Position numbers and translations under genes: made by a program
The notes under the pieces: generated by a model
Seen by the model: the letters and a program-made list of their open reading frames with translations, nothing else
Database searches by the model: none
What the model was told of the DNA's origin: nothing
Shown: piece by piece, positions 15,934 through 38,348 of the stretch
Numbering within the stretch: position 1 is the first letter of the stretch
Layout of the letters: every line of letters begins with the position of its first letter
Origin: Patescibacteria group bacterium
GTDB taxonomy: Bacteria; Patescibacteriota; UBA1384; JBAYJO01
Length of the DNA stretch: 64,000 nucleotides
Assembly: GCA_041665085.1 (NCBI GenBank)
Contig: JBAYJO010000002.1
Span: 83,413-147,412 of the forward strand
Direction: 5' to 3'

Positions 15934-16221
15934 TTGGAAGGTGTGATGGAAAAGATTGATAAGATTATAAATAAAAGATTAAAACAAGGTGATTTTAAAA
16001 AACCAATGAAGGCGGCAATGGTATGTATGATAGTGCAAAAAATCATACCAGAGTGCCGTGTGGTGTCGTTTGATGGGGGTTTACTTAGACTTTGGGCGCT
16101 TGATTATCCTACTGCAAACACAATTATTATGAATCAAATAAATCTTATAAAAGAAATCAATAAAGAACTCAAATTTGAAAGAGTAAAAGGAATTAGAGTA
16201 AGAGTTAAGAACTATTCTTAA
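15934..16221 (+). CDS. DUF721/DciA-like small protein (conserved partner of the dnaA-dnaN-recF cluster)
   Basis: 95 aa. Position and pattern (..VVSFDGGLLRLWALDYPTANTIIMNQ..) are typical of DUF721 proteins. An alternative ATG lies at 15946. Confidence 0.45.
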   Translation: MEGVMEKIDKIINKRLKQGDFKKPMKAAMVCMIVQKIIPECRVVSFDGGLLRLWALDYPTANTIIMNQINLIKEINKELKFERVKGIRVRVKNYS

Positions 16222-19200
16222 TAACCAACATGGACATGATCAACTAAAAGATCATTTGCCCATACGCCGCTATATCCTCTTTCAGAGATTGAACCATAAA
16301 GATCTGTGATTCTTTCCGCTTCTTCTTCAACAGAAGTAAAATTATACATAATTACTTGAGTTGGCCTTAGATACTCGTCGCCGGTAATATCCTGAATACC
16401 TAAAGCATCTTGCATTATTTGTTTTGATTTATAGGTTGCAGCTGCTTTTAATCCGTCTTGATAAGATACATCATTGGTTGGATCAAAGTCAGGCAAAGTG
16501 CAGCTTTCGTCAGCATTATCGAGCATCGGTTTTTTACCGATTTTATTACTATTAAATTTCTTTCGGAAAAAATTAGCTGCGTCTTTGGTAATGCCTGCCG
16601 CGATAGTATAGTCCTTACCCATATTTGGATAATAGCCGCAAGCTGAACACCTGTAGTCGACACTTTTTATTCTCATGCCGAATAAATTAATAACCAGTAC
16701 TATGGCAAGTCCTATTAATGGGTTTGTTCCAAATGCCCACCCAATTAATGATCCGGCAATACCTGAAGTTGAGCCTGGCATCAATCCCCATTTTTCATCT
16801 AGCTCGGCAAATTGTTTTTTGAAAATTGTTTGAACAACAAAAGACACTACAGCTCCTTCTACTTGTTTCATGTCTGATGAGGCATCGGCTTGAGCTTTTG
16901 TGTCATTGGCTGCTTTTGCGGCGATATAGGCTTTATGAGCTGCGTCGTATGCCTTGTACATCGTGTAAACTTGATAAGCTGTGCCTATATCCAGCTTCAA
17001 CCATTCGTCAACTTTGCTCATAAGCGAACTCCAAACATAATCTTTCATTACATCTTGGAATGATTGGCCGATATCGGTTCCATTTACATCACGAGTGTCT
17101 GTATTCCAGTGATTTTGACTAGCTGCAAAAAGAGATAGAGTAAATCCTGGTGGAGGAAAACCTTTGTTTCCAAAAACTTCAACATTTAGATAATTATCAA
17201 TAGTATCGCAAATTGCTGAATTTTTTATTGCATTAAAATCTCTTTTGTCAGGCGATGTTGAAAAATAATTAATCAATGTAGGAAGCGTGCCGCCGGTTGC
17301 AAGAGCTTGAATTAGTTTGTTGTCCGGGTTATTTTCTTTAAGCGTTAATTCAATAACTCCTCCCATTGCCATCATTCGATCAACAGTGTTTCCTTCAATC
17401 ATTGATCTTGTAAAACCATGAGGGATGTTTGGATTATTTTTCCATAACATACTGTCTGATAATTTATAAAATGGTTCGGTTTTCCAGTATTTTTTTTGTT
17501 TTAAGACTGCTTCGTCTCCTATTTCTGTTGCATATTCAAGTTGGTTTGTTGCGTATGTTGCTCTGTCTGCAGTGATGGCATCAACATCGCTTGCCGGAAT
17601 ACCTCCAAGTAAGGCTTGTTGTCTTAAATTTTCTTCTGCAATTACACTGCTATTAATATCTAATGTGTCAGGTGGTAATGTTTGATAATAAGATATATCG
17701 GAATTTAAATCAGCCCCGTCACCCTTTAATGCTGAAAGTGTGAGAGTAGCATCGTTTGGCGGAGGAAAATAAGCTTGTCCATCACCCGTGCCAACACTTT
17801 GACTATAACCATAGATTTTGCTGGCAGTTGCTTCAGGATCGTTGATAATTATTCTGTCACTTAAAGAACTAGTGGTTCCAGGTGGTAGTATTGTAGTTGG
17901 CGGATATAGCTTTTCGTATTCTTTAGCTCCAAGCGCTTGGGCTCTTTTTCTTATTTCGCTTTCAGTTTCAGCGTTTCCTTCTATTGCATATTTAAAATCA
18001 TTGTAAGTAAATTTGTAATCGTCAGGCAAATTAGGAATACCGGCAGACAGTTGGTTCCCGGCATATTCAGCAAATTTTACATAAGCAAATATTTTATAAT
18101 CTCCTCTGATTAATCTGTGAGCGTCTTCTTGAGGAATCAGTATTCCACTTGATGATCCGATTTTTTCAATTACTTTTAATTCAACGCCGCTTTCAATTAT
18201 TCCCATGGCCGCTCTACCGGTAGCAGTCGTTGCTTGCTTACGGCATGACGAAGGATCTACCGGATTTTCACATGTTATATCATATTGTGTTTGATAAGCA
18301 TTAAATAATTTTTGCGTAAATCCGTTGAATCCATATTTACTTAAATCAGAACAAGAATCATCCTTTTCGCAGTCCGGTCCCAGCCCAAGCAAAGAGTCGA
18401 TTTTTATAAAACCTTGATTTAACATTATATTTTTTGCTTCGGCCGGATTTAAAATTATGCTTTTGATTGTTCCTGGTGTAAAACTGGCGGTTTGGTCTAA
18501 ATCTATTGAAAAAGCAGCACTGAAATTATCATATAATTGAGCTGTTCCGATTCTTTGTTTTGCCGGATCACTGCTTGTTAAGTTATTGTAGGTTGCAACA
18601 AGACCATGGTCCGGGTCAGCTAGGGAAATATTATATTTATTCTCGAGGTTTAAAAGTTGATCTAATTTGGTTGCCGCAAGATTTGTAAATACTTGTTTTG
18701 AAGTTTTACTTCGATATTCTTTAGGAGTAATTTCTCCTTTTAACATTTTTGCGGTTGTTCCGGTAACAAGAGAAAGATTGCGATCTATTTCTGCAAGTCG
18801 GTACTGAAAATTTCTTGCTTCATTCATCAGTTTTTCTGAATAATGTTGAGCTCTCAATTTATCAAGCGGTAAATATAAATAATTATCTGTATAATATGTG
18901 TCCGGATCTGTTATTTTTGTCATCGGTGCAATAGCTTCTTTAACCCAAGTGACAATTTGCGTTTTATCATTTATAGCTTGTTGAAATTTTTTGTAAGTCG
19001 GACTGTTTAGATTCTGATCAACAATATCTATTCTTAGTTGATCCCAATCAATGTCGATTTTATTTTTTAAAATATTTGGTAAACCAAAACCGGTAATAAA
19101 AGCATAAGTATTTTTTGAAATTGTTTCATCTAAATTATCGGAAAATGAGTCAGAGATTAACCCGATCGTGCCTTCAAGGTGAGCATTTCCAACGCTATTT

Positions 19201-22200
19201 ACTAGATCAGATGGATTTAAGCTAGATAAATTGATTGGACGATCAACACCTAGTAAATTTGACAGTTTAATTCCGCCGATTTCAGCAAGCAAGTACTTTC
19301 TTTCATCATTACTTTTTGCTGTTACTAATTTATATCCATAATCTTCCGGAAGGCCAAATTTATCTTCGATTCTTTTTCCACCGATTTTTGCAAATGGATC
19401 AAGCGAGCGGCCAATTAATATATTGTAAAGATCTTCTGTGGTCAGTTTTTGTCCCATGAAGTTTACATTGCTATCGTACAAGGAATCAGAGATTTTAAAT
19501 CCAAGTTGATATGCTCCAACTTTTTGGCAATATTCTGTAACTGTTATTTTTCCCGAAAGCATTTTTTGAGTTGTTCCATGTTCGATGGAAAGTTTGTCAT
19601 CGATTTCATTAAGGTTTGACGCATAGTCCTCCCAGAAGAGATCTTCGCTTAGTTGAATTAAATTCCACAGGAGAGGTGGCTTTCCAGCAGTAAGTTCATA
19701 AGGCATATTGAAGATTTCTGATACTCGTTTTTCAGTTTCTTGATCTGTTTCGCCGGTTGGTCTTGTTGCAACAAAAGCTGATTCAAGTTTCATCAAAAGC
19801 CCCATTGATTTATCTTGGTAGCTAGCAGTAGATACAAAACTTCCTGCCGGGAGATCCAGTTTTTCTTCGATAGCTGCTTGTCCAACAGATTGTTTTAGTG
19901 TGTCTTGGCTTTTAGTTGTTGCGGCCATGAAATATTGCAGAGAATTGGTAGGCATTTTTAAGGATTGTTCAGTTTTTCTGGCGGCAATAGTTTTGGCAAA
20001 ATTTTTAATTTCTTTTGGGTTTTTTGCTAAATATATTAAATCTTTTTTAGTGATAAGAGTTGTCGAATTATCCGGGGTTGATTGTGTACTCGGGTCAGAA
20101 TCAATAGCGTCATAGTTTTCTTCAATCTCTTCTCCTTTAACTATTTCTTTGATGTCTTTATTGATTACTTTTACATCTTCTTTTGTTTGATTTTTTATAC
20201 TTTCATTTTCCGGTTTATCAAGTTCTGCCTGAAATTTTTGCCAATTTTCTGTGATTCTTCCAACAGTTGGGCTAACTTGATTTATTGCCATATGTTTTGA
20301 AAGCAGATCAAATTCTTGTCTGATGTTTTTTACATAATCTTTCAAAACTGTTTTAGAGGAGTCGATTGAATTTATGTTTTTTTCTATATTTTCAGTACGC
20401 GACCGGATATCATTAACTCTTGTAGTATAGAAATTAATATCATTGTTAATTTTTATAAGTTTTTGAACCGAAGAACTGTCATTTAATTTTGTTTGTAATT
20501 TTTGACCAACTGTACTGTTCTTCAGTCCTTCGAATAAATAATGTTGACCTTCTTGTTTGAAGACATCGGATGTATTTCCAAATAAAAATATTTTATTTAT
20601 ATCTCCTGATTCTACGGTATAAAATTTCGATGTAAATTCATTTTCGTCTATGCTTGTCTTCTTGAATGCTTCGCTTAGTTTAAAATCAGGATTTGTTTTG
20701 ATATCAAATTGAGGTAGATGAAATGGATCATTGCTATACATAGATATTGATTCTATCGGTTCAATTTTGTTTATAAATACAAGATCTTTAGTCATTGTAT
20801 CTTTATATTGAAGGAGCCAGTGATAAAGTATTTCCCTTTGATCATCAGCGGTTGAAAGTACTTTAGATATTTCGTAAGCACCAATTGTTTCTAATTTTGA
20901 TCTATCTCCAGCTAAAAGCGGATCTATGCTTCCTTCAGGAATATCCAATGCTTCATCTCTTTTATTTCCTTGCGGCACTCCGCCTTCTTCTGTTGTGGCA
21001 GAATCACTAGGGTTTTTCGTACCAGCTGCAACATTCCAAGGATAATTTTTATATTGTTCAATTGTGCTTGCTTTTAACTCGTTTGTTATTTGTTCTTTAA
21101 GCCAAGCTACATTATGGTTGTTCAAAAAATTTGCTGTTGTATCTGTTTTGACTCCAAATCTTTCATCAGCAAGATATGGATTTGCTCTGATCCAATCTGC
21201 TCTTTCTTTTCCCATTGCAGTCATAAATTTATCAAAATCATTTGTTGCAAGGCTGTTTTCTTCAAGATATAGATTACCTTCAAGCAGTCTTTGTGCAATT
21301 CTTTCATTTAAACTAGCTGCCGATGTAATTTTGTCATAATCAAAAGTTCTAATTGGAAGATTTAATTCTTTTTCAATTTTTCGGGCACCTGCATTTCTTA
21401 AAATTTCAAGATTATTTTTTCCACTCAAACTTCCTGTTGGAAGTCCGAGCGATTGTTCGATGTAATACTGACCAATTGATGTTTCAAGTTCGTTAGTGTC
21501 ATTTCCCTGGATTGTTTGTCTTGGAACGCCAAGTTGATCGGCAATAATGGCGCGTCCGAGATTATCCATTATGTCGTCAAAATTTGTTCCTTGCCAACTA
21601 TGAGATGGGCTTTGAATGACTTGTTCAAATATTCCCCGTCCGATAAAGGTGGCGACATTAGATAGATTAATGGTGCTACTAAATTCATCTGAAGAATATT
21701 CATCTTGACTAATTCCAAGCTGATCAAGCAATTCTAAAAAGCTTACATTTGTAAGAGAATTTGCAAGCGCGTTGATTGATATTCCCAATGTTTCTTCGGA
21801 GCTGCCAAATTTGCCGCCTTGCCAGGAAATTTTGATTGCGCTTGGATTCATAGCTGTTGTTTCTGTTTTGGTAGTTCCAACCCAGTTTTTTTTAACTACT
21901 TTTACAGAACATCTCAAGTAGTCTACTGTTGCGACGTCAACTGCTTGGGAAAAACCCGAATCAGGATAAGCGTGCGAAAGAATTGAAGGTTCGGTCGATT
22001 TATTTACATCACTGTCTGATGCTACAATTTGTGATATTTGTATAAGCTCATGTCCGGCACCTCCCCTGTCTTTTGGTGTGACAAGATAAATTATAAAAGC
22101 CTTGACTCTTCGATCAACTTTATTTTGACGAATTGCTTCTAAGTCTTTTTGAGTAATAATCAATTTTTGCGTTTTATTGGCATAGTTCCAATAGGAATCA

Positions 22201-22541: not shown

Positions 22542-22553
22542 ATCCCTCTTTAT

Positions 22554-23828
22554 TTAAAATGTTGAAATTTCCCCTTGAACTTGTTGAGTCGAACTATCGC
22601 TGCTTTTTCCAAGCAAAAATAATTGCATCTCAAGCCAAAAACTTAAGTCGGATTCGAGTTGATATGACCTGCTAAATCTTTCACCCCCGGTGCTTAATTG
22701 AAAGTGTAATTGTCCTTCTGAAGGTATATCAGAAATGGTGCCGATTTGATCTCCTGCATTTACATTGAAACGATCCTCTGGTTTACTGGTTTTAATACCG
22801 GCAAGTATGACTGAAGCATTTGTTGTTGTGTCTCCGCTCTCTGCACTAGTTTCATCAGCATTGTTATTTGAAATAATTTCAATTCTTTCTTGGTCTGTCC
22901 CTCTGCCGTAAACATAGGCAATACCGGAAAGAGGCGCCCAAACAGGGCTGCCTTTTGCAATAGCTATATCAACGGCATCATTATATCTACCCAGATCACC
23001 AAAGTCGGGATTGAAAATTGATTTGTATACATTGTGATCTGCAACAGCACCGTTGTTGAATGCTGAAAATCCGTGTAAAGTTTTTCCATAACCAGTAATT
23101 AAAGTTGGATTGATCGGAAGAGTTGTTGTGGTGGAAAATGCCGATGTTTCAGAATCGGTTTTTGTTAATACTTTTCCATTAAAATTGTAAATTAATTGAA
23201 CCAAATATACAGATAAACTATCCGAGAGGTTGGATATTACGGTGTTGTTAGTGGCACTTGATCCTTGAGCAAGCACTATTTGATCAATTGTTGGAAGAAT
23301 TTTATTATTAATTAAATCATCACCATTTCGTAATTGTTGTTTTTTTCCTTCATCTGTTTCGGTTTCAAGTTTATTTTGAATTTCTTTACTAACTTTCTGA
23401 ACAGCTGTGCTGATTGAGCTTCCTTTGTTGGCAATTAATTCGGCATTCTTTTTTGGATCAGCTAAAGCCTCAATTTCTAAGGTATTTTTTTTATCTTCTA
23501 TTGTTCCGGTTGGGGTATCCGGACTGCATCTACCGCCATTACAACTTAATGCTGCAGCAAAAAAAGCAATTGCAATTGCTATTATGGCTATTATTATTAC
23601 AATTGGAATCCAATAAGGAGAAAGTGCAGCCCACGCAGCAGTTGCTGCTGCTTTTATTCCCGATTTCCAGATAGTTTCTACTATAAATTTCTTAAATCTA
23701 TCTTTGAGAATAGCTTTAGCTTTTTCTGCAGCTTGCTCTTTGAGATTATTAACAACACCCGGCCCTGTTCCTTTGTTGTTGTTTTCTATCTCTTGGTTGT
23801 CCTCTTGTGGTTGTCCTAAGTCTGCCAT
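22554..23828 (-). CDS. Membrane-anchored protein with degenerate LytM/M23 peptidase-like domain
   Basis: Has GSPVWAPLSGIAYV and AGDQIGTIS...GQLHFQL. The expected HxxxD motif reads YNDAVD and HLHFE reads QLHFQ. The catalytic histidines therefore appear substituted. Confidence 0.45.
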   Translation of the reverse strand: MADLGQPQEDNQEIENNNKGTGPGVVNNLKEQAAEKAKAILKDRFKKFIVETIWKSGIKAAATAAWAALSPYWIPIVIIIAIIAIAIAFFAAALSCNGGRCSPDTPTGTIEDKKNTLEIEALADPKKNAELIANKGSSISTAVQKVSKEIQNKLETETDEGKKQQLRNGDDLINNKILPTIDQIVLAQGSSATNNTVISNLSDSLSVYLVQLIYNFNGKVLTKTDSETSAFSTTTTLPINPTLITGYGKTLHGFSAFNNGAVADHNVYKSIFNPDFGDLGRYNDAVDIAIAKGSPVWAPLSGIAYVYGRGTDQERIEIISNNNADETSAESGDTTTNASVILAGIKTSKPEDRFNVNAGDQIGTISDIPSEGQLHFQLSTGGERFSRSYQLESDLSFWLEMQLFLLGKSSDSSTQQVQGEISTF

Positions 23829-23829
23829 T

Positions 23830-24981
23830 TTAATTCCACCCTGTTAATAAATCGATTTCATAAAAATTATTATTAGCTATGTAGTAAGCTTTGTTGCTAT
23901 CTATTACGATAATTTGTGAAATAGCACCTAATACGGTTGTTTGAAACGGAATCATTTTTGATTGGGTTAAATCTATTAAATATAATGTATTATTATCAAA
24001 AGCTACCAATTTATTGCTTTCTTTAATCCAACTTATTTGTTTGACATTTGATTTTGCAGATAAATTATAAACCAATTCACCATTAAATTTTATAATTTTT
24101 AAATTATTGTCAGTATTATTAACTATTATGTATTCATTTTCAGGCGAAGGAAGAAAGTCAGAGACTTGTTCGGCAATTTTTTTGGTTTCAAGCGTGGTTA
24201 AATCAAGTAAATATAAATCATTTTCAGCGATTAGGACTTTTAAACCATCAGGTGTGAACATAAGTTTTGGGTTATTTAAATTTAGACTTTTCAGGTTCAA
24301 AATTATTTTTGAATTTTGCCCATTGTTATCAGAGAGAATTAATAATTTTTCTCCGCTGTCAGGATATGAAGTATAGGCTATTTTGTCTTGATCCGGGGAA
24401 AGAGCAAAATCATTTATTTTAGTTGCAATGGATTTTTGAGTCTGATTGACAAGATCATATCGTCTAAATTCATAGAAAAATAATTCATTTCCTCTTTGGA
24501 CCAAACAATTTTGTTCATCCGGAAAAAAAACAATTTTTGAAGCGTTGCCAAAGTTTTCGGATGTTATTTTTTGATCTTGGTTATTTATGTGTTTGTAAAG
24601 AGCGCCATTTGAAAGATAGTAAATATTGTCTTTGTATTTTGTTACATATGCGGCATTTTTTGCAATTTCTATAGGTTTTGGCAATTCCGCAAGAATTGGC
24701 GAAATGGTTGTTGTAATTCCCGGGTTTATTTTAATATTTCTAAAAAAAGAAACAAAACCATCTTTTGCAACTTTAATTATATAATTACCGGTTTTAAGTT
24801 TTGCGTTTAAAGTAATAGGTTTTTCATTAGCATAAACAGTTACCTCTTTAGGGGTTGATTCGATATTTAAAGTTCCTTTGGAAAAGAAATAGATATACCC
24901 GAGAGTTACAAAAATTAGCAAACCTAAAACTAAAGGGATTGCTTTGATTTTTGCAGATAATCTAAACTTGGAGAACGCCAA
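23830..24981 (-). CDS. N-terminally anchored PEGA-domain / TolB-like beta-propeller protein
   Basis: TM helix, then a PEGA-like segment (VTVYANEKPITLNAKLKTGNYIIKVAKDGF), then a repetitive beta-strand-rich region. Confidence 0.4.
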   Translation of the reverse strand: MAFSKFRLSAKIKAIPLVLGLLIFVTLGYIYFFSKGTLNIESTPKEVTVYANEKPITLNAKLKTGNYIIKVAKDGFVSFFRNIKINPGITTTISPILAELPKPIEIAKNAAYVTKYKDNIYYLSNGALYKHINNQDQKITSENFGNASKIVFFPDEQNCLVQRGNELFFYEFRRYDLVNQTQKSIATKINDFALSPDQDKIAYTSYPDSGEKLLILSDNNGQNSKIILNLKSLNLNNPKLMFTPDGLKVLIAENDLYLLDLTTLETKKIAEQVSDFLPSPENEYIIVNNTDNNLKIIKFNGELVYNLSAKSNVKQISWIKESNKLVAFDNNTLYLIDLTQSKMIPFQTTVLGAISQIIVIDSNKAYYIANNNFYEIDLLTGWN

Positions 24982-25914: not shown

Positions 25915-25956
25915 TAGAAAACTGGTGTACGGGCGAATAGTTCATGCACATACACT

Positions 25957-25979
25957 TCGGGCCCCGCTTCGCGGGGCCC
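25957..25979. other. GC-rich perfect hairpin (cgggccccgc-ttc-gcggggcccg) downstream of the GC-rich gene
   Basis: 10-bp perfect stem with no U-tract on either strand. Confidence 0.4.
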
Positions 25980-25995
25980 GAACTATTATATATAT

Positions 25996-27042
25996 TTAAT
26001 TGAATTTATAAAGATAATTATTTGAAAGAAAATAAATCAAATTATTGCTGTCCAGCAGGATAGTGGTTGGATCTAAATTTTCTCCTATAAATTGTTTTTG
26101 TTCAATTGTGTTGGTCTTGGTGTCGGCGATAAATATATTATCCTCTGAAGTGACCTTATTATTTAAGCTATAATAAAGTTTATCGCTAATTAGATTAAAT
26201 TTATCTAGATTTTGGTTGTTTGTAATATTGTTGATTTTAAAGATTGATCCGTCGGTTGTATTGATTATTTCAAAAATATTATTATCTTCTTTTTTATACT
26301 GAATCAATATTTTTTGTTCTGACGGGTATATTTTTTCAGTTATAAAAACATTTTCATAAAGAATATCCTTTTTTTTACTTTTCAGGTTTAATCTTACAAA
26401 GTCAACTAACATATCTTCTTTGACGTTTTCACAATAAATATCTTGAGTATCGGGGTTGTAATATTTGAATTCATCACAATTTTCCGGGTCGCTGATTTTT
26501 TGAAAGTTAGTTCCGTCCCAATCAGATTGGTTAATAGATACTTTACTAACATCTAAATATTCATAAATTAATTTATCGTCTGACCAGTAAGGATCGAAAA
26601 TATTTTCATTTAATTTACTAAGCTTTTCCTGTTCTAAATTGTAAGTATAAAAAATTTCAAGATTATTTATCTGATCAGTAGTGTTCATTAAAATGAGTTT
26701 TTTGTCATTTGACCAACTAACATAATTAATATAAGGAACATCTATAGGATAATTCTTAATGGTTGTTTTGTCTTTTAAAGAATATTTAATAATTGCTTGT
26801 TCCTTTCCAGCGATATATAATAGTTCCGAATTTTCATTTATAGTGGGAAAAAATATAGTATCATTTAAAATTTGTTTAGCATTTGTAGTTTTTGTTGAAT
26901 TAGTATTATTGTTATTTTTGTTTTTATTTAGAAGTAAAAACATAATTAAAAGTCCAAAAAATAAGATTATGATTGTGATAATTAATATTATTTTTTTTCG
27001 ATTATTTAACATGTTTTCCTTTCTATTAAGGGCAGACAGCAC
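25996..27042 (-). CDS. N-terminally anchored beta-propeller-like protein (hypothetical)
   Basis: TM helix, an Asn/Thr-rich linker, and a repetitive beta-rich region. Overlaps the upstream gene by 17 nt. Confidence 0.45.
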   Translation of the reverse strand: MLSALNRKENMLNNRKKIILIITIIILFFGLLIMFLLLNKNKNNNNTNSTKTTNAKQILNDTIFFPTINENSELLYIAGKEQAIIKYSLKDKTTIKNYPIDVPYINYVSWSNDKKLILMNTTDQINNLEIFYTYNLEQEKLSKLNENIFDPYWSDDKLIYEYLDVSKVSINQSDWDGTNFQKISDPENCDEFKYYNPDTQDIYCENVKEDMLVDFVRLNLKSKKKDILYENVFITEKIYPSEQKILIQYKKEDNNIFEIINTTDGSIFKINNITNNQNLDKFNLISDKLYYSLNNKVTSEDNIFIADTKTNTIEQKQFIGENLDPTTILLDSNNLIYFLSNNYLYKFN

Positions 27043-28207
27043 CTTTGCTTTTTAAATAATAAATATGACTACCAAGAAAAGCAGAAGGATTTAATAAAGA
27101 TGCAATTGGGTAGATTGGATTGCGATTCATGGGATCAGCTAAAATAAAATTTGTATTATCCGGACTAACTCCTATTATTAGCACTCTATGCGCGCTACTT
27201 GTAAACGATTTTCTTCCTGGAATGTTGGCTGTTGTGTTTGCTCCAATGACTACTGGGATTTGTTGGTTTAAATAACATTTTATTTTTTCTAGTGTCGGCG
27301 GGCGTTTAGCAGAACCAAGTGGTACATATTTTATTTTTCCAGACAATTCTGTTGGTGTTGAGGTTGGAAGTCCCCATGACATATTATTGCCTCCCGGTGT
27401 GTATAAATCCCAAACTGTATCAGGAATAATGATTTGTTTCTGCATGGCATAATTTACTGCCATGCAAACCGAAGTGACAGCGCATCCAACTCTTCGAACC
27501 AAAGGATTGCTTGCCTCTGTTTGATATAGTCTGTAAGGATTAAAATTAGCAAGGCTTCCAGCAATAATATTTTCGATTTCATAGAAATATTGGTATGCTT
27601 CTATTACTCTCCCAACATAAGGCCTTGTTTCTTTGAATGTTTGGCCAACAGACCATGGTTTGCCCGAATTGTATCTTGAGGCTGCATCGCGTAATTTATC
27701 TAAATCAGTTGTATTTCCACCCGCACCATTCATAGCGCATAGATGTGCGGCAGCGAAGGCCGAATCCCAGATATTTTGTATTTCCATTCGTCCATCACCG
27801 TTACCATCTTGTTTGTGACCTTCCCATGTTATTGGCATAAATTGAAATGGTCCGCTTGCTCCGACTGTAGATGATGCCCAAGGTCCTGTAATGTCCGGCC
27901 AAGGAATACTTGGATTAAAATGAAAATCTGAATGGCCTCCTCCATGTTCCCCACCCATGAACATCGCGGCAATAAAAGCAGGTTGTACTTTCCATTTTTC
28001 TCCTGCTGCTGAAAACACTTTCGCATATTCTTCAGGAATATTTTTGAGTCCACCCTCGGCAAACATCTCAGCGGTTTTGCCGGGATTGTCGCTTTGGTTT
28101 CCGGCAAATAGGCCAAGAGCAAACATTGCTCCGATTGCAACAAAAACTACAACAATAATTATAATTACAATTTGAATAAATCCTTGATTTTTCTTTTCGC
28201 TTTTCAT
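27026..28207 (-). CDS. Bifunctional cell-wall hydrolase: lytic transglycosylase (SLT) domain plus C-terminal CHAP/C39-like cysteine peptidase domain (VirB1/PrgK/TcpG-like)
   Basis: N-terminal TM helix. SLT motif GASGPFQFMPITW. C-terminal RVGCAVTSVCMAVNY ... HRVLIIGV suggests a Cys/His peptidase. Located immediately downstream of VirB4. Confidence 0.55.
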   Translation of the reverse strand: MKSEKKNQGFIQIVIIIIVVVFVAIGAMFALGLFAGNQSDNPGKTAEMFAEGGLKNIPEEYAKVFSAAGEKWKVQPAFIAAMFMGGEHGGGHSDFHFNPSIPWPDITGPWASSTVGASGPFQFMPITWEGHKQDGNGDGRMEIQNIWDSAFAAAHLCAMNGAGGNTTDLDKLRDAASRYNSGKPWSVGQTFKETRPYVGRVIEAYQYFYEIENIIAGSLANFNPYRLYQTEASNPLVRRVGCAVTSVCMAVNYAMQKQIIIPDTVWDLYTPGGNNMSWGLPTSTPTELSGKIKYVPLGSAKRPPTLEKIKCYLNQQIPVVIGANTTANIPGRKSFTSSAHRVLIIGVSPDNTNFILADPMNRNPIYPIASLLNPSAFLGSHIYYLKSKGAVCP

Positions 28208-30066: not shown

Positions 30067-30748
30067 TTTCTCCTTCCTTGGTTGAGATTAATGCACTTTC
30101 TAAAACATTAACATCAGCTAATTTTTCTTCTGATGATTCTTCAGGGTTATAAATTTCATAAAATAATTCAACTAATTCTTGGGTTGATAACATTGCAGCC
30201 CGAAGTCCAAGACTGGCAAGTCCGGAGACGATCACACCTGTTCTTTCTGTTATTAGGGATTTGTATTGCAACAGTTGTTTTTCATCAATATTAATAGTTT
30301 GCTGCGATTTGTTTCCAAAAAGACCTGAAAATAAACCTCCGCCCGGTTTATTTAAGACCGGTGGCGAGTAAGGGACAACGACGAAAAATTGTTTATCCAT
30401 AATGTTTGCGATATTGATCAGTCTTTGAACATATTCAATATAATCAGCGATCTGGATACTCATAAGTTCATTTTCTTCAGCTTCTAACTTTTTCTTTAAT
30501 TGATTGATATAAGGTGTCAAATCGAGTTTTTTTGACCTGACAATAATTTGGATAGGAAATTCAAGAGAGTTTAAAAAACCTTGATAGGAAAAGATTAAGG
30601 CATTTTGTTCTCGCTCTGATTTTAATGCAAAGTTGACCGAGCTTACCAAAAGAACAGCACGAAAATCACCTGTTTTTAAAATGACTAATTCGTCGCGAAT
30701 CTCGGCGATGTCAAGATGTTGTTGTGTGCTGGACTGTTTCTGTGCCAA
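30050..30748 (-). CDS. VirB4 N-terminal domain protein (CagE_TrbE_VirB-like), separate ORF
   Basis: DIAEIRDELVILKTGDFRAVLLVSSVNFALKSEREQNALIFSYQGFLNSLEFPIQIIV matches the VirB4/TraC N-terminal consensus. Its TAA stop lies 14 nt after the ATG of the ATPase ORF. Confidence 0.6.
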   Translation of the reverse strand: MAQKQSSTQQHLDIAEIRDELVILKTGDFRAVLLVSSVNFALKSEREQNALIFSYQGFLNSLEFPIQIIVRSKKLDLTPYINQLKKKLEAEENELMSIQIADYIEYVQRLINIANIMDKQFFVVVPYSPPVLNKPGGGLFSGLFGNKSQQTINIDEKQLLQYKSLITERTGVIVSGLASLGLRAAMLSTQELVELFYEIYNPEESSEEKLADVNVLESALISTKEGENATTK

Positions 30749-31436
30749 GATTTCCTCCAGTTAAATTATTTGGCGCAATTGGTTGGTTATTTATTGGTGT
30801 TTGCCCGGTAGGCGGGGCTTGATTTGGTAGAGGAGTAGAAGCTGTTGGTTTGGCTGATTTCATATTGGATATATCTGTTATTGGTGCAGGGGCTGACATT
30901 GTTTGTAATTCTTTTGCCTGTTTCATTTGTTCGACTTGCATTGATTCAGTTGTGTGAGGGGTTTCAACTTTTTCGAGTGATTTCCATCCCCCGCTGTCTA
31001 ATGTCTGTGCTAATTTCTGCAATTCGGATTTGCTAATTTTCTTTTTAGGTAAAGTTGGTTCAACGCGTTTTTCCTTGTGAGGAAGAATTATAGCTTCTTG
31101 CATTGAACCTTTTTGCCATACTCTTTCGCGCGGCTTGGTAATAAATGAAATTAAAGCAAGAATAAAATGTGAAAATGGTTGATCTTGAGGTTTGTAGAAA
31201 GTAAAAGCCAAGATAAGAATTGCTGTTGGTAATCCGGTCGCAATAAAAAGAGGCATTGGTAAAGTCGTTAGGAGAATATAGATAATAGAGCCTCCGATTG
31301 CAACAAAAATAAATTGCTTCAGCGTAAGAGGTCCGACAATTTTATCCTCCATATCTATGTTTTGCGGTACTCGGTATTGCACTTCCCTCCTTAGAGAATG
31401 TTTGGCTCTGCGTCTTGTCAGCAGACCTATTGTCAT
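30711..31436 (-). CDS. VirB3/PrgI-like small membrane protein with Pro/Gln-rich C-terminal tail (start uncertain)
   Basis: Two TM helices (FIFVAIGGSIIYILLTTLPMPLFIATGLPTAILILAFTF) directly upstream of VirB4. Alternative starts: GTG after SD AAGGAGG (about 31382) or ATG at 31352. Confidence 0.4.
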   Translation of the reverse strand: MTIGLLTRRRAKHSLRREVQYRVPQNIDMEDKIVGPLTLKQFIFVAIGGSIIYILLTTLPMPLFIATGLPTAILILAFTFYKPQDQPFSHFILALISFITKPRERVWQKGSMQEAIILPHKEKRVEPTLPKKKISKSELQKLAQTLDSGGWKSLEKVETPHTTESMQVEQMKQAKELQTMSAPAPITDISNMKSAKPTASTPLPNQAPPTGQTPINNQPIAPNNLTGGNLGTETVQHTTTS

Positions 31437-31503: not shown

Positions 31504-31836
31504 TTAAACAGATGCGGTATTATCTTGAATCAGCTTTTGAGCTGCTTCCTTTAATTCTTGGTAAAGCTCAACTATAGCGTTTGAAAGCTTTCCTTTAAAA
31601 TCAGGAATTGTGGTTGAAATTTCTTGAATAATTTCTTCTTCGGTTTTATTTTCCATCATTTTTTCTAAATCATCGGGATTAGAGTCTGGGAGGTTAGCTA
31701 AAATAACTTCCATGGTTTTTTGAGCTACTCGTTCTCTAATAAGTTCTATTAATTCTGATTTGGTTGGATCGGCTAGATTTTCAAGTCCCAAATCTTTTAA
31801 GATTTGATCTGCTAATTCAGTTGGTTCGCTATTCAT
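31504..31836 (-). CDS. Small acidic hypothetical protein
   Basis: 110-aa Glu/Asp-rich ORF in the operon with no recognisable motifs. Confidence 0.4.
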   Translation of the reverse strand: MNSEPTELADQILKDLGLENLADPTKSELIELIRERVAQKTMEVILANLPDSNPDDLEKMMENKTEEEIIQEISTTIPDFKGKLSNAIVELYQELKEAAQKLIQDNTASV

Positions 31837-31875
31837 GGTTCCTCCGATTTATTATTTTTTTAAATATAATTAAAC

Positions 31876-33186: not shown

Positions 33187-33188
33187 AG

Positions 33189-36161
33189 CTATATAGTTCC
33201 ATTAGTTGGAGGAGGAGTTGGTTCTGATGGTGGAGGTGTCTGTTGTTCTTGGACTGGTGGAGTCGGTGCTTGTTCGGCTGGTGGTGCGGATTCTGTGTGT
33301 GGTGCCCCTGTTGGGGTTTGACCGGTGTTTTCTGCAGCAGCTTCCGTATTTATTGTAACGGCTGGGGCAGTATTTGGTGAATTTTTTGGCGTACTCTGAT
33401 TAACTCCTTGCTTAACAGCTTGACTGAAAACTCTTTTAAATTTACGGCTGGTTAGAACTGAACCTAGTTCGGCAGCAGAGCTAATAGGTTTTATGCTTGT
33501 TTGAGATGCAGCGGTTTTAAAGGCTGATTGAAGCATAGGTTTTAGGTTGTTTATGTTTTTTAAATTTTCTCCCATACCTTCAATACTTGAAGCGATTTTT
33601 TCGAGTGGTCCGGTTAGTTTTTCTTCAAGTCCTTCAAAACTGCCGTTTGATGTAGCTAAGTGTTGTTGAGTAATTGATTCGGCTTGTTTGGCGGCGTAAC
33701 CTTGTCTGTAAATTGACCGGTGATTTGCTTTTTGAAGGCTTTCTATGACCGGTAAACTTGTTTCACTAAATTCCGGTTTTTGAAATTCTTTATAAATATC
33801 CTCGCTTTTTAAGGTTTCCATTCCTTTGATAACATGCTGAATATTTCTTTTCATGGTTTCTTCATCAGGCGAGGCTTCTGCTATTGCAGGAGAAATATTC
33901 TTTAGCTCTGCGTGACGAATTTCAAAAGAACGGTTGCTTGATCCGATCTCTTCCATCTGATCCTGCACCTTGCTTAGTGTTTCTTCATTAATTTCTGTAC
34001 CGTTTAATTTAAGTTGCCTTGCAACTCCCAGCGCTTCGATACCGGCTGTTTTTTCGGTTGATTCATAAATATGGTCGGCAAATTTTTCCAGATATTTATT
34101 TTCTCTAGCCCTTTGTCCTTTGGCCGATCCTTCAAGTTCAGTCCATTGGGTGGTTGTGATATTGCGGTTTCCTCCGTATTTCGATGAGATATCTTGATAA
34201 GTGGCGCCAGAGTTTATTTCATCTAAAACCGCACTCGCGTCAACTGATTCACCTAAAATACCTTTAACTTTATCTTGATCAGCGCCCATTGAAACATCGT
34301 CATTAGTTTTTTCAGTCATGCGGTCTGTTCTTGATTGGTCGATTTCTTGTAATTTAGAAATTTCATCGGCTGTAAGATTTTGTCCGTCTTGTTTAACAAT
34401 AATTGCTCCTGCTTTTAAACCTGCCAAAGCTTTATCTGTGTCGACATCGTTGCCTAGAATTTTTTTTATTGCCGATTCTTCTTTTTGGCTTATAGCATTT
34501 TCGAGTTCATTTGCCATATCGTCAAAAGTTCGTCCGCTACCTGTTCCAGCAGCAAAAGCCGGGATAGGGCGTCCACCTCCGCCGCCAGCGCCTGCTGCAG
34601 CTTTAGCAGCAGCTGTTCTAGCCTCTTTTAATAAGTCGGCGGCTCCTTTCTTTCCTCCTGATGATCTAGTAAGTTGTATCCATCTGTTAAATTGTTGAAC
34701 TAAATCTGCTCTTTCTTCAAGTCCAAGTGCATCGAGCCCTTCTATACCGGTTTTTTTTGATGAAATTTTTGCAGGGCTTAAGGTTAGCATTTCTGTTAAC
34801 TGTTTATCTTCCAAGGTAATTCCTTTTGCGGCTAAATCAGCTTGAGTTTTATTGAATTTATCCCATACAATTTTAGGATCGTTTACAAAGCCGTTGATCT
34901 CGCCTTTTTCTTTGAGATATGCCATATAGCTTGGTTTTGATCCGGCCAGTCCACCAAAAATTCGGCCTTTTTTAGCATCTGATATTCTGGCTTTTTCTGC
35001 ATCTTCAGTTCTCATTTTCCAAGCATCTTTTGCGCCATAGAAATTTGTATTTTTAAAACCTTTTCCTACCGTGTTTTTAATCCATGCTTTTGCTCCTCTG
35101 TCAGTATCTTTGGCTTTAATGCCTGATCCTTTACTCCAAACTGATCCATAGGCTTTGCTTGCTAGTCCTCCGCCTTGTTTAAGAAGCCCGGACCAAGCTC
35201 CCATAACTCCGCCTCCCATGCTCAAAGGTATTTTTGCCGAGTAATATAAAGCGCCAATTAAGATTAAATATCTCATTAAAGCCATTCCTTGGCTTGGAGT
35301 GGCTCCTCCGCCTAAAGCATCAGCAATTGTAACGCCTATCCATATGACGAAGAAAGTTATGCAAGGCATAAATGTCCATTTAAAATACAAGTCCCACCAT
35401 TGCTTGAAATATTTCTCTGTAATTGGAAATCCAACCGAGAAGAATGCAATTGGTGAAGCGATAGTTAAAGCTATAACAACAAAATATCTGATATAGAAAA
35501 GTAAAATCAAAGCCCAGAAAAATAAAATTGGGGCAAAAAGCAAGAGTACTAGAAGAATAAATGCTCCGCATCCACCAATAAATATCCACGAAACAACAAT
35601 GCCGATTATGCCCAAACTAGCTACTCCGGAATTTGTCCATAAGCTCATACTTTCAATAGTTCCGATTCCAAGTTGTTCATAGACTTTCTCAAGCAAACCT
35701 CCTGATCCTGAACCCACGGCGGTTGCCGAACCCATTGTTAATAACCAATTTGAAAAAACAGCAGATGCTTCAAGAAGAAGTCGGCAGACTAAAAGTGAAA
35801 AGTTGGCTAAAATTGCGCCCAAAATAAGTGATGGCAGAATCTTTTTAATAGAATATGTGTCAATATTGAATCTTAAGACATTGGCTGTACCGGTAAAAAG
35901 TATAAAAATTACAAACAGTGAGTTTGACATGGCAAGTAATACTTTCCATGCACTCATAACTCCGCTTTCTACAATAGTGTCGGAAAGTTGTTTAAAATCA
36001 GGGTCAGCAGCATAGACATTTTTTATGATTGGCAGATTGTGTAATGGATTTAAAAGAGTATCAAAATCGATTTGATACAAATTTTTAAATACTATAATAC
36101 CGACAAAAATAGAAATAATTGCTGACAAGCCGATTTTTAAATAATTAAGCTTTTTTTCCAT
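33189..36161 (-). CDS. VirB6/TrbL-like polytopic membrane protein with about 650-aa hydrophilic C-terminal extension and Pro-rich tail
   Basis: At least 7 TM helices in the first 330 aa. A long K/A/G/E-rich C-terminal region ends in PTPPVQEQQTPPPSEPTPPPT. Confidence 0.5.
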   Translation of the reverse strand: MEKKLNYLKIGLSAIISIFVGIIVFKNLYQIDFDTLLNPLHNLPIIKNVYAADPDFKQLSDTIVESGVMSAWKVLLAMSNSLFVIFILFTGTANVLRFNIDTYSIKKILPSLILGAILANFSLLVCRLLLEASAVFSNWLLTMGSATAVGSGSGGLLEKVYEQLGIGTIESMSLWTNSGVASLGIIGIVVSWIFIGGCGAFILLVLLLFAPILFFWALILLFYIRYFVVIALTIASPIAFFSVGFPITEKYFKQWWDLYFKWTFMPCITFFVIWIGVTIADALGGGATPSQGMALMRYLILIGALYYSAKIPLSMGGGVMGAWSGLLKQGGGLASKAYGSVWSKGSGIKAKDTDRGAKAWIKNTVGKGFKNTNFYGAKDAWKMRTEDAEKARISDAKKGRIFGGLAGSKPSYMAYLKEKGEINGFVNDPKIVWDKFNKTQADLAAKGITLEDKQLTEMLTLSPAKISSKKTGIEGLDALGLEERADLVQQFNRWIQLTRSSGGKKGAADLLKEARTAAAKAAAGAGGGGGRPIPAFAAGTGSGRTFDDMANELENAISQKEESAIKKILGNDVDTDKALAGLKAGAIIVKQDGQNLTADEISKLQEIDQSRTDRMTEKTNDDVSMGADQDKVKGILGESVDASAVLDEINSGATYQDISSKYGGNRNITTTQWTELEGSAKGQRARENKYLEKFADHIYESTEKTAGIEALGVARQLKLNGTEINEETLSKVQDQMEEIGSSNRSFEIRHAELKNISPAIAEASPDEETMKRNIQHVIKGMETLKSEDIYKEFQKPEFSETSLPVIESLQKANHRSIYRQGYAAKQAESITQQHLATSNGSFEGLEEKLTGPLEKIASSIEGMGENLKNINNLKPMLQSAFKTAASQTSIKPISSAAELGSVLTSRKFKRVFSQAVKQGVNQSTPKNSPNTAPAVTINTEAAAENTGQTPTGAPHTESAPPAEQAPTPPVQEQQTPPPSEPTPPPTNGTI

Positions 36162-36163
36162 AT

Positions 36164-37141
36164 TTATACCACTAAATTTCTTAATCTATCGTTTGTGCCT
36201 TTGGCAAATCCGGCGATAATACTCCAAACAGCTTTGGCTACATCGCACATAACTCGTCCGATTAGAATGCCGGGAAAACCGCAATCGTTTCCGCCGATTT
36301 GCTCGATGATACTAATGTCTGCTAGTTTATGTTGAGTGTCGGAAGGAATTAGTTTTGTTTTGTCAAGAGTCATTGTTTGTTTGTAAACATTATGTTCACC
36401 AATTTTAGGCATATGGGTGTAGTCAGTTTGATTGAAATCTTTTTGAAAGAAATAGTATTGTTCTTTACCCCCATCTATAGAGATTTTTTCTGGTGTATAA
36501 ACAAATAATTGTGTTTTACCGGTATATACATCAGTATGAATTCGGGCTTGTGTATCTGTGCCTAGGCTATCATGAATTAATTTTAAATTCATTTCACCTG
36601 ATTTTAATGTTCCTTCAGCTAAAATTGGTCCATTGTTTGGCATTCGAATTTGAGCTTTAAATCCATCTGCTGGTAGGGCTATTTCAAATTCGTAATAAGT
36701 GTCATCGTTTTTGGAATGATCGGAAAAATCTGTTCCATCTTTGATTGATTGTGCAGAGGCAAGAGCAGCCCAGTTGCCACCTTTGCTAGCTGAATTATAA
36801 GTTTGGTTAATTATCAAATTATCTTCATCGGTTGTAGCATAACAAGTAGTAATCTGATCGCTTTTCCAAACATTTACCATGTATCCTGTAAAAGCGGTTG
36901 ATCTGGCTCCTGTCCATGTATAGGTGTCGGTTTCCGACAAACAAGCCGGCTCCTCAACCCCGTCAAGTCGAGTAAGTTTAAAGTCATTTGTGGATTTTTT
37001 TTCAAATTTCCAATAGTCGGCAGCATAAGCTTTTGGTGGATTTGTAAATATAAATGCAAAATTTGCCAATAATAATATTAGCATCATCAGGGCTCGGTAT
37101 TTTAATTTATTTTTAAACATTGTCCCCTCATAAGTATGCAT
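36164..37141 (-). CDS. Secreted protein with conserved pilin-like C-terminal tail (paralog A)
   Basis: Signal peptide. The C-terminus CDVAKAVWSIIAGFAKGTNDRLRNLVV is near-identical to the C-terminus of 37269..38348. Confidence 0.5.
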   Translation of the reverse strand: MHTYEGTMFKNKLKYRALMMLILLLANFAFIFTNPPKAYAADYWKFEKKSTNDFKLTRLDGVEEPACLSETDTYTWTGARSTAFTGYMVNVWKSDQITTCYATTDEDNLIINQTYNSASKGGNWAALASAQSIKDGTDFSDHSKNDDTYYEFEIALPADGFKAQIRMPNNGPILAEGTLKSGEMNLKLIHDSLGTDTQARIHTDVYTGKTQLFVYTPEKISIDGGKEQYYFFQKDFNQTDYTHMPKIGEHNVYKQTMTLDKTKLIPSDTQHKLADISIIEQIGGNDCGFPGILIGRVMCDVAKAVWSIIAGFAKGTNDRLRNLVV

Positions 37142-37216
37142 CTTAAATTATTATAACAGCTGACTTGGAATTTTGAAATTATTAAAGTTTAATCGCTAGA
37201 TGTATTTAAACCAATT

Positions 37217-37266
37217 CTCTGGATCCCAGCCTGCGCTGGGATGACAAAAGAAGTTGGGATGACAAC
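37217..37266. repeat. Hairpin repeat copy (ATCCCAGC-ctgc-GCTGGGAT plus partial second unit) between the two paralogous secreted-protein genes
   Basis: ctctggatcccagcctgcgctgggatgac is identical to 4193-4221 and 5609-5637. Confidence 0.7.
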
Positions 37267-37268
37267 TG

Positions 37269-38348
37269 TTAAACAACCAAATCCCTTAGTCGGTCGTTGG
37301 TACCTTTGGCAAAACCTGCAACTATTGACCACACTAAATTTGCAATATCACATACTATTTTATTTAAAAAGCGCCCAAGTTTGAAATTGCAGGGGTCAGG
37401 ATTGTCTGTTGGAGGGCTTGTAACGGTGTGTCCTACAACAGTGGTAATTTTCACATCAGTATCAGCCGGTTTAGAGTAATCAAATTTTGTAAAATCAATT
37501 AAAACAATATCCGAGGTTGTGCTACCGTCTTTATCATATGTTGCTGAGATTCTGTATGCAACAACATCTGTTCCGGAGACATTATGAGTAAATTTTGTTA
37601 CTGCTTTATCAACTGTGCCGACTTCTCCTAATCTGTCGTTAATATTTGTTCCCGATGCGTCGGGTGCTGTGCCTGATTCGATTTCAAATGATTTGAGATC
37701 AGTTGTGTTGGTTGGTTTGTCCCAGCTTAATTCAACTTTTGCAGCTTTATTGCTATAAGTAGAAACTTTTACTTTAAGATTAAGCGGTCTTCTTGTATCT
37801 AAAGTATCGGTTTGCCCGGATAATCCGCCTTCGGTTGTTTTTATCACGCTTCCACTTGGGGTTGTGGTTCCTTTTGTTGTCATTGTAAGTGTGCCTAGTG
37901 AAACTGTGTATCTATCAACTCCGCAAGCAACTACATTATTTGGATCATTATTTTCATCACGATCATTGTCCGGATTATATGGGTTGTCTTGCCAAGTTTT
38001 TTTACAGATTTTTGAATCACTTACTGAAAAAGACTTAGTAAAATTTTCATAACCAGTTTTTGATAGTTGCAGTTTATAGTTGCCTACAACAGGTGTGTAA
38101 ATTACAAAGCAGTTCGAATCTGTTCCCGGCTCTGAAGTAAAAGAATTGCCGGTAAAGGTGTTTTTGATCTCTTTTGTAGTGCCATCCGGATGAGTTAATT
38201 TTACATCGACTTGTCCCGGTTTTGAATCAAACTTTAAAAAAACCACATTACCTGTCATTGCAGATGCTTTTTCAATATTAATGTTTGAAAATGAAAAAAT
38301 CTGCAAGATGCAGCCTAGACAAATCATTGTACCGATAACTTTTTTCAT
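37269..38348 (-). CDS. Secreted PEGA-like / Ig-like domain protein with conserved pilin-like C-terminal tail (paralog B); first gene of the operon
   Basis: Signal peptide and a PEGA-like segment (VGNYKLQLSKTGYENF). The C-terminus CDIANLVWSIVAGFAKGTNDRLRDLVV matches the neighbouring paralog. Confidence 0.5.
   Translation of the reverse strand: MKKVIGTMICLGCILQIFSFSNINIEKASAMTGNVVFLKFDSKPGQVDVKLTHPDGTTKEIKNTFTGNSFTSEPGTDSNCFVIYTPVVGNYKLQLSKTGYENFTKSFSVSDSKICKKTWQDNPYNPDNDRDENNDPNNVVACGVDRYTVSLGTLTMTTKGTTTPSGSVIKTTEGGLSGQTDTLDTRRPLNLKVKVSTYSNKAAKVELSWDKPTNTTDLKSFEIESGTAPDASGTNINDRLGEVGTVDKAVTKFTHNVSGTDVVAYRISATYDKDGSTTSDIVLIDFTKFDYSKPADTDVKITTVVGHTVTSPPTDNPDPCNFKLGRFLNKIVCDIANLVWSIVAGFAKGTNDRLRDLVV

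Follow-up and report, generated by a model that had tools for sequence, protein, structure and literature searches.

Thirteen minus-strand open reading frames (ORFs), running from 38348 to 16218 in a 64-kb stretch of DNA (the window, analysed here at its full length), very probably encode a non-conjugative type IV secretion system (T4SS) of the Patescibacteria type. The window belongs to a contig of 150 kb (ENA ERZ27249449 k141_130032; its proteins at NCBI are named "Patescibacteria group bacterium"), of which about 73 kb was seen, that is, the window and the 9 kb on its left. We consider it highly likely that this chromosomal, origin-proximal system was derived from the monoderm MPF-FATA conjugation machinery and is without a DNA-processing module. 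A VirB4 ATPase, TrsD and PrgI, an indirectly recognised VirB6, a pilin array, the absence of a relaxase and of a type IV coupling protein (T4CP), and proximity to dnaA were all found, which would place the system in the Patescibacteria clade of T4SSs. An earlier reading made from the letters alone (the sequence-only reading) had proposed a monoderm T4SS in the CPR (candidate phyla radiation) style, chromosomal, beside the origin, and more likely to serve host interaction or uptake than conjugation. This proposal stands, since the core signatures were found and the mobility genes were absent.

Translocon core, origin and mobility genes

The gene g08 (Table 1) encodes a VirB4 ATPase that reached 367 bits on the NCBIfam CD1110-family VirB4 model (cut-off 325 bits), with further Pfam matches to P-loop_TraG (4e-29), CagE_TrbE_VirB (2e-6) and AAA_10. 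Its Walker A (GAGKS) and Walker B (IIDEAW) motifs are intact, and aligning the protein with 17 relatives showed no variation at the motif residues. The genes g06 and g07 overlap or abut that of VirB4. On VirB4 models, the g07 protein spans positions 3-171 and the g08 protein covers positions 181-734, and in the public annotation g07 is TraC-like (PF26593). No pairwise similarity was found between g07 and the VirB4 N-terminus within this genome, their relation being visible only via family models, by which g07 is predicted to be the equivalent of the VirB4 N-terminal segment. With these complementary model positions, "split VirB4", the term of the sequence-only reading, is a fair description and corresponds to the way in which TrsD and VirB4 are known to be arranged in the pGO1 subclass. 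The VirB3-like protein named there is the g06 product, identified by its PrgI match.

The protein encoded by g03 has at least five transmembrane (TM)-like hydrophobic segments in residues 1-283, followed by a long hydrophilic C-terminal half. It has no direct Pfam match itself, a word-indexed homologue search with its membrane domain gave only two weak matches, and its profile returned only chance coiled-coil matches from the PDB. In 41 of 80 loci, however, a homologue is encoded upstream of PrgI; of 31 such positional homologues, 7 matched TrbL of Pfam (2.5e-7 at best), and TrbL_3 is carried by the orthologue in L082, the closest relative (VirB4 87% identical). By transitivity g03 is a predicted VirB6, and the VirB6/TrbL-like protein of the sequence-only reading was thus recovered indirectly. 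Together with the lytic transglycosylase described below, VirB4, VirB6 and SLT signatures were therefore all recovered by profile searches, VirB6 via homologues.

Two smaller proteins are encoded between VirB6 and PrgI. The HExxHxxxH motif of g04 is kept in the L082 orthologue, and homologues were found in only five loci, each time between VirB6 and PrgI; it could be an accessory protein resembling a metalloprotease, or a substrate. Its single-sequence AlphaFold2 model (predicted local distance difference test, pLDDT, 38) was unusable. The other, g05, is acidic and helical.

More than 8000 homologues of the VirB4 were detectable. The best 120 are 63-87% identical, and among these all with a source name were Patescibacteria or Berkelbacteria; the best species-level matches are 63-68% identical. 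The comparative set consisted of 80 species-representative loci (the best VirB4 matches), almost all from CPR metagenome-assembled genomes. TrsD-VirB4 was present in 80/80 of these loci and PrgI, immediately upstream of them, in 77/80, in the same order throughout, so the gene-neighbourhood comparison across Patescibacteria suggested by the sequence-only reading bore out its core. In several Patescibacteria lineages dnaA-dnaN-recF or femAB-tsaD stands beside the cluster, and in a relative with 70% VirB4 identity the cluster ends with an M23 hydrolase, a propeller-like protein and a 2095-aa giant, followed by DciA and RecF on the opposite strand. L082 keeps all genes g03-g13, gX (see below) included. 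Identity to L082 drops from the cytoplasmic parts (68-87%) to the exported parts (29-56%), a divergence that would be expected of surface proteins meeting a host.

Perfect DnaA boxes were located at 11994, 13423 and 13434, and one-mismatch boxes at 13504 and 13641. Given these positions, with which the minimum of the cumulative GC skew near 8-12 kb of the window agrees, oriC probably lies 2.6 kb from the g13 stop codon, next to the cluster as had been proposed.

A Pfam scan of every window ORF of at least 100 aa and of the 9 kb to the left revealed no VirD4/TcpA-type coupling protein, relaxase or integrase, which agrees with the VirD4 and relaxase absence reported in the sequence-only reading. 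The sole FtsK-like protein of the window is a genuine complete FtsK with 4TM, alpha and gamma domains. Direct repeats resembling att sites were not found around the cluster, only AT-rich chance repeats. Neither a relaxase and T4CP just outside the window to the left nor boundaries of an integrative and conjugative element (ICE) were therefore found, and most cluster genes have background G+C content (GC), in keeping with a position outside any obvious mobile element. Within the window and the 9 kb to its left, the features of a conjugative element, be it an ICE or a plasmid transfer region, appear to be lacking. Outside the cluster the window contains dnaA, dnaN, recF, a DciA-like gene, rnpA, yidC, jag, PilB, tsaD, leuS, a Mur ligase gene, polA, holA, and genes for PNPase, RNase J, FtsK, signal peptidase, S20, UDG and recA; the 9 kb to the left is also housekeeping.

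Table 1 Features of the T4SS cluster and its surroundings (window positions; identity is to the closest relative, L082)
Feature	Coordinates	Strand	Identity to L082	Remarks
TPR membrane protein gene	38373..38861	-		24 nt upstream of g01, same strand
g01 signal-peptide protein, 359 aa, orphan	37269..38348	-		last 40 residues form a module common with g02
g02 signal-peptide protein, 325 aa	36164..37141	-		common with g01: C-terminal module only
g03 polytopic membrane protein, 990 aa, predicted extended VirB6/TrbL-type	33189..36161	-	29% (VirB6 tail)	assigned via homologues
g04 cytoplasmic protein, 436 aa	31876..33186	-	39%	HExxHxxxH motif; no TM segment
g05 acidic helical protein, 110 aa	31504..31836	-	59%	weak DUF5663 match
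g06 VirB3-type membrane protein (PrgI family)	30711..31436	-	68%	Pfam PrgI 3.4e-12
g07 TrsD/TraD-type protein, 232 aa	30050..30748	-	69%	NCBIfam TrsD NF041427 2.2e-10
g08 VirB4 ATPase, 620 aa	28204..30066	-	87%	NCBIfam CD1110-family; Pfam P-loop_TraG
g09 VirB1-like bifunctional cell-wall hydrolase	27026..28207	-	56%	TM anchor, SLT_2, Peptidase_C39_2
g10 bitopic membrane protein, 348 aa, propeller-like	25996..27042	-	44%	same superfamily as g11
gX, 258 aa	25138..25914	+	36%	signal peptide; GC 0.465; conserved in L082
g11 TM anchor, PEGA and TolB/WD40-like beta-propeller	23830..24981	-	55%	Pfam PEGA 2.9e-7 and propeller families
g12 bitopic membrane protein with degenerate M23/LytM domain	22554..23828	-	47%	Pfam M23 1e-3, below cut-off
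g13 giant surface protein, 2107 aa	16218..22541	-	50%	N-terminal signal peptide, C-terminal TM anchor
DnaA-box cluster, probable oriC	13423..13649	.		dnaA-dnaN spacer
Six VirB2-like T4SS pilin genes, 92-131 aa	2131..4621	+		Pfam T4SS_pilin

Pilins, wall hydrolases and exported proteins

The core components had been named in the sequence-only reading, which overlooked the six-gene pilin array 11.6 kb from the cluster, across dnaA and the origin. All six proteins matched Pfam T4SS_pilin (8e-12 to 6e-6), two of them also weakly TrbC/VirB2, and their pairwise identity is 19-36% (mean 26%). Since divergent VirB2-like arrays of this kind have been described for the Patescibacteria T4SS, the array is assigned to the T4SS on the grounds of family and layout, though it lies outside the thirteen genes first delimited. 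The first pilin gene is overlapped by 4 nt by the gene of a 451-aa SBP_bac_8 solute-binding lipoprotein (region 779-4621, plus strand), homologues of which are found directly upstream of pilin genes in loci of different lineages (L013, L015, L016, L017, L025 and L080). No mention of this linkage was found in the consulted literature on Patescibacteria T4SSs.

The protein encoded by g09 matched SLT_2 with 4.3e-6 and 26.6 bits, just over the cut-off of 24.3 bits, as well as MltB_2 (2.6e-5). Its C-terminal domain matched Peptidase_C39_2 (2.5e-10) and also C70, and no CHAP match was obtained at E <= 0.01. Of the "SLT plus CHAP hydrolase" in the sequence-only reading, the SLT half thus held and the CHAP half gave way to Peptidase_C39_2; the domain is a papain-fold cysteine peptidase, with a function probably analogous to CHAP. 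In g12, whose family is present in 16 loci, alignment with the intact counterpart of L083 (which keeps HLHNGID and HIH) indicated that the segment with the histidine of HxxxD is deleted and that HxH has become QLH. With its zinc-ligand histidines lost, the protein is the degenerate M23 protein that had been proposed, and is probably non-catalytic.

The PEGA and beta-propeller proteins noted earlier were also recovered, g11 matching both Pfam PEGA and propeller families. The g11 family was found in 61 of 82 loci, the set over which it was counted; 59 matches share the strand of VirB4 and follow it downstream, with a median distance of 1.2 kb, so the family looks like a regular companion of the Patescibacteria T4SS in these loci. 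It is not mentioned in the main text of the Quinonero-Coronel 2025 survey (PMC12102498). An iterated profile built from g10 recovers g11 orthologues. As direct paralogs g10 and g11 were rejected: their BLASTP similarity was not significant, and they are joined only through the iterated profile.

The 2107-aa surface protein of the sequence-only reading is g13, which has an N-terminal signal peptide and a C-terminal membrane anchor (residues 1933-1961). Among 1.84 billion proteins its family forms 202 representative clusters, nearly all of them 1400-3300 aa long, and its homologues close the cluster in L082, L083 and 8 further loci. No Pfam domain was found in 30 members scanned (11 + 19), and neither the whole-protein nor the domain profiles of g13 gave a PDB match. 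The family has an invariant N-terminal block (IDRRI..YLVTP..GGAGHERI ... NISxHxxGQAVDI ... PIKVxWQT) and a conserved C-terminal anchor region. In g13 the block lies at 21756-22190 on the minus strand, with invariant residues D143, R145, P156, G161, G163, H190, A200 and D202, and the NISxHxxGQAVDI motif is split by a 5-residue insertion both here and in the closest relative. We take this motif to resemble the SxHxxGxAxD zinc site of LAS/M15 peptidases, a likeness that no search supported. A LAS/M15 identity of g13 was accordingly not adopted, being a motif-level guess on which Pfam and PDB searches gave nothing. Single-sequence AlphaFold2 of residues 101-330 yielded an unusable model (pLDDT 36).

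At the upstream end of the cluster, g01 and g02 had been described as two secreted paralogs. Both do have a signal peptide, but their similarity is restricted to the last 40 residues (63% identity, BLASTP E 2e-14). This C-terminal module (37272-37397 and 36167-36292, minus strand) has two cysteines and the motif C-x11-CD[IV]A..VWSI[VI]AGFAKGTNDRLR[DN]LVV. It was not found in the rest of the window, in the 80 loci, in a search of 5.8 billion proteins or in two metagenome scans. The idea of a widespread sorting tag was dropped, as the module was seen nowhere else, and we regard it as an orphan feature; within this pair of proteins it may serve as a docking or sorting tag. The g01 protein has no Pfam, NCBIfam or PHROG match, and the search of 5.8 billion proteins returned only g01 itself. 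PHROGs and NCBIfam likewise gave no match for the unassigned cluster proteins.

Gene layout and neighbouring genes

The thirteen ORFs are the same as the genes in the public gene call of the contig, which, with the ORF list, bears out the thirteen tightly spaced minus-strand genes at 16218-38348 that had been described. Spacing between them ranges from a 38-nt overlap to a 127-nt gap, except for one gap of 1014 nt between g10 and g11. This gap houses the plus-strand gene gX, which stands out by its GC against 0.25-0.40 in the neighbouring genes. Its homologue in L082 keeps the same place and orientation, and we regard gX as a real gene on the evidence of this conservation. A perfect 12-bp hairpin with 10 GC pairs (25956-25982) stands between gX and the convergent g10, and the best promoter-like site of the region, with 11/12 consensus positions, was located just upstream of g11 (25043-25015, minus strand). 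In the promoter and terminator scans, total counts were not above shuffled expectation, and only these two strongest single sites were used, as hints. Because of the plus-strand gX, the hairpin and the promoter-like site, the cluster probably forms at least two transcription units, and the "single-strand operon" of the sequence-only reading is not retained. The TPR membrane protein gene upstream of g01 may belong to the first transcription unit; a weak homologue of its product is encoded upstream of VirB6 in L010.

Most cluster genes have a GC of 0.33-0.40, in line with the window mean of 0.359; the outliers are g10 (0.25), g11 (0.29) and gX. In L082 the g10 orthologue also has a low GC (0.27), and the g11 orthologue, at 0.33, is at the low end of the range of that cluster. 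The gX protein is of a secreted type, rich in Trp and Gly, with a DLNKDG motif, and is conserved only in L082, where its GC is not raised. At 3855-5135 of L082, two small genes (224 and 200 aa, GC 0.49-0.51) and an 880-aa gene without a counterpart in the window lie between the g04 and g05 homologues. The cluster interior seems to tolerate the insertion of foreign-looking genes.

Between the pilin array and PilB, a gene encoding a 597-aa secreted M48 metallopeptidase (4689-6482, minus strand) has a GC of 0.545 against 0.359 for the window and is flanked on both sides by GC-rich hairpin-like sequences. The gene seems to have been acquired recently from an organism of high GC; an assembly chimera is less likely. 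The protein is on record for copies of the contig at NCBI, JGI, Logan and ENA. The gene of PilB, a type IV pilus ATPase (T2SSE 3e-123), overlaps that of a 483-aa polytopic membrane protein without a family match (6662-9623, minus strand), and this pair, close to the origin, has the T4SS pilin array on one side and rnpA-yidC on the other. The pilin array and the origin have ComFC-like, HSP20 and tRNA-Ser genes in their company (L085 6963-8569; window 9828-9916), as in Southlakia SEML1_0020-0022, which suggests that the origin-proximal neighbourhood is deeply conserved across classes. Two inverted repeats were also seen, one with 22-nt arms (95% complementary) at 15831-15897 between recF and the DciA-like ORF, the other with 44-nt arms (73%) at 40020-40126 in the divergent femAB/tsaD promoter region.

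Relation to known systems and possible function

The nearest described counterpart is the cluster of Southlakia epibionticum, in which Tn-seq showed SEML1_0006-0019 to be essential for growth on the host (Wang 2023, PMC10633639). That cluster has a Gram-positive-like composition and a pilin array, without a coupling protein or relaxase, and the tables of the same study list a PEGA protein, hydrolases, VirB4, a TrsD-like protein, PrgI, VirB6 and six pilins beside dnaA-dnaN-recF, the PEGA protein being essential (Wang 2023, PMC10633639). The window resembles Southlakia ML1 SEML1_0004-0019 in its place beside dnaA-dnaN-recF, in the order VirB6 ... PrgI - TrsD-like - VirB4 - hydrolase - PEGA on the opposite strand, in the six-gene VirB2-like array nearby, in the lack of a relaxase or coupling protein in the cluster, and in its tRNA-Ser, HSP20 and ComFC-like neighbours. 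The two differ in that the window genome is Berkelbacteria-like and not Saccharimonadia, that its pilin array lies across the origin whereas that of Southlakia abuts VirB6, and that its hydrolase combines SLT with a C39-like domain whereas that of Southlakia has three lysozyme-like domains. The 2107-aa giant, the degenerate M23 protein, the second propeller, the HExxH protein, the two orphan secreted proteins and gX are extras of the window, and no NTF2/VirB8-like protein was recognised in it.

In a survey of the phylum, a distinct VirB4 clade related to MPF-FATA was described, with ubiquitous TrsD, PrgI, VirB6 and VirB2 arrays, TrsD being the commonest T4SS-associated gene in Patescibacteria; relaxases were nearly absent and T4CPs seldom near virB4, and proximity to dnaA/dnaN was noted, with a gene-dosage effect proposed (Quinonero-Coronel 2025, PMC12102498). 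A 2025 review counts the system among novel Gram-positive T4SSs. Among MPF-FATA systems we compared pGO1/pSK41 TrsC-TrsD-TrsE, pIP501 Tra, pCF10 Prg, Clostridioides CTn2 CD1110 and the Mycoplasma ICE. The window shares with them the CD1110 VirB4 match over the cut-off, a separate TrsD/TraD as in pGO1, a PrgI-type VirB3, a VirB1-like hydrolase with two lytic domains, the lack of a VirB7/9/10 outer-membrane core, and a pilin-like gene matching the Mycoplasma ICE family Mbov_0395. With the SLT plus CHAP hydrolases TraG of pIP501 and PrgK of pCF10, g09 has in common the N-terminal lytic transglycosylase but not CHAP. Unlike these systems, which are found on plasmids and ICEs, that of the window is phylum-wide, fixed by oriC and equipped with VirB2-like pilin arrays, and it lacks a relaxase, a coupling protein, oriT-associated genes and an adhesin of the PrgB type. 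Bordetella Ptl, Brucella VirB and Helicobacter ComB also operate without VirD4 and without a relaxase, and two of them illustrate the abilities of a machine without T4CP, Ptl by exporting a substrate delivered by Sec, ComB by importing DNA. All three are, however, diderm MPF-T systems with VirB7-VirB10 cores, and no homology to the window beyond VirB2, VirB3, VirB4 and VirB6 was evident.

By their sequences, VirB4 (g08), TrsD (g07), VirB3/PrgI (g06) and the extended VirB6 (g03) supply a complete cytoplasmic-membrane translocon with its motor. In the mechanism that we propose, the hydrolases would open the cell's own wall, and the pilins would build an extracellular filament or conduit across the monoderm envelope. 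The fast-evolving exported proteins (g10/g11, g13 and g01/g02) would form the distal, host-contacting part, and the position close to oriC may raise gene dosage. Because it has no coupling protein and no relaxase, such a machine would not conjugate DNA. Most likely it would transfer proteins or other macromolecules between the epibiont and a host bacterium, in one direction or the other, or hold the cells together.

Several points weigh against this reading. The gene of a coupling protein could sit in another part of the genome, the covered part of the contig being about 73 kb of 150 kb, and T4CP homologues distant from virB4 are common in the phylum (Quinonero-Coronel 2025, PMC12102498). The VirB6 assignment comes through homologues only, and a VirB8-like (NTF2) component was not recognised in the window. 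The epibiotic essentiality of the system and the lifestyle of this uncultured organism are extrapolated from Saccharibacteria, and substrate, direction of transport and assembled pilus have been identified neither here nor in the literature on the system.

That the machine imports DNA or nucleotides, like Helicobacter ComB or archaeal Ced, and so feeds a cell unable to make nucleotides, seems unlikely to us, although the idea has been raised in the literature, T4CP and relaxase are absent as in ComB, and the pilin array has a ComFC-like gene 3.5 kb upstream of it. The weak partial similarity of VirB4 to the DNA-import ATPases CedB and CedD (1e-11 and 5e-8) is confined to the common P-loop region, and no DNA-binding component was recognised in the cluster. 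Competence of Southlakia depends on type IV pili and ComEC; loss of ComEC leaves viability unaffected while the T4SS is essential, which argues against competence-coupled DNA uptake, though not against another import route. An organelle that only adheres, with VirB2-type pili and the giant surface protein attaching the cell to its host and no substrate transported, is an improbable alternative that draws on the divergent six-gene pilin array, the giant anchored protein, the PEGA/propeller proteins and the fast divergence of the exported parts. Classical VirB systems, moreover, carry out pilus biogenesis without needing a coupling protein. Against it, type IV pili already serve attachment in Saccharibacteria, and a PilB gene is present in the window too; a translocating system would likewise carry an extended VirB6 and a complete set of ATPases. 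Nothing in the letters tells mere adhesion apart from the transfer machine that we prefer, and such data alone do not separate the transfer of effectors or macromolecules from the import of DNA or from adhesion pure and simple.

We give hardly any credence to a conjugative element or decaying ICE remnant beside the origin, with its relaxase and coupling protein outside the window or recently lost. The VirB4 does score high enough to pass as a member of the CD1110 conjugative-transposon family, the families matched by TrsD/TraD, PrgI and the pilins are those of conjugation, and foreign-looking high-GC genes occur in and near the cluster. Yet integrase, relaxase, T4CP and flanking direct repeats are all missing, most cluster genes have the background composition of the genome, the Walker motifs are intact and every gene has an open reading frame. 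The core and its position by dnaA/recF or femAB/tsaD are moreover conserved over distant Patescibacteria lineages, which argues for long vertical inheritance under selection.

The preferred reading, a non-conjugative Patescibacteria T4SS, thus agrees with the sequence-only reading as to the type of machine, one for host interaction or uptake; the functions suggested there, attachment and DNA uptake, stay inferences here as in the literature. The errors of detail noted above (operon continuity, CHAP, paralogy and the overlooked pilins) leave that interpretation unchanged. It coincides with the published view (Wang 2023; Quinonero-Coronel 2025) and is supported, not new. In a 2024 perspective the role of the T4SS was called "completely unknown"; the speculations offered are delivery of effectors and uptake of nucleotides or DNA.

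The Patescibacteria T4SS is essential in the one species tested, and on its role and cargo the window gives nothing decisive. The cluster itself is a rediscovery of a published T4SS, and possible new material is limited to accessory parts: the giant anchored family, the PEGA/propeller protein and the pilin-linked solute-binding lipoprotein. Together with the degenerate M23 protein, these are the candidate accessory components of the window. Speculatively, and with little confidence, we suggest that the PEGA/propeller protein found after VirB4 in most loci, the degenerate M23 protein and the g13 family might be an undescribed distal host-contact assembly replacing the VirB7/9/10 core and the adhesin, in which the giant would attack or grip the host wall, the pilin-linked lipoprotein pointing to import and not export. 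For the phylum, the window shows that the Southlakia-type layout, origin-proximal, without relaxase or T4CP and with a pilin array nearby, extends to a Berkelbacteria-like lineage.

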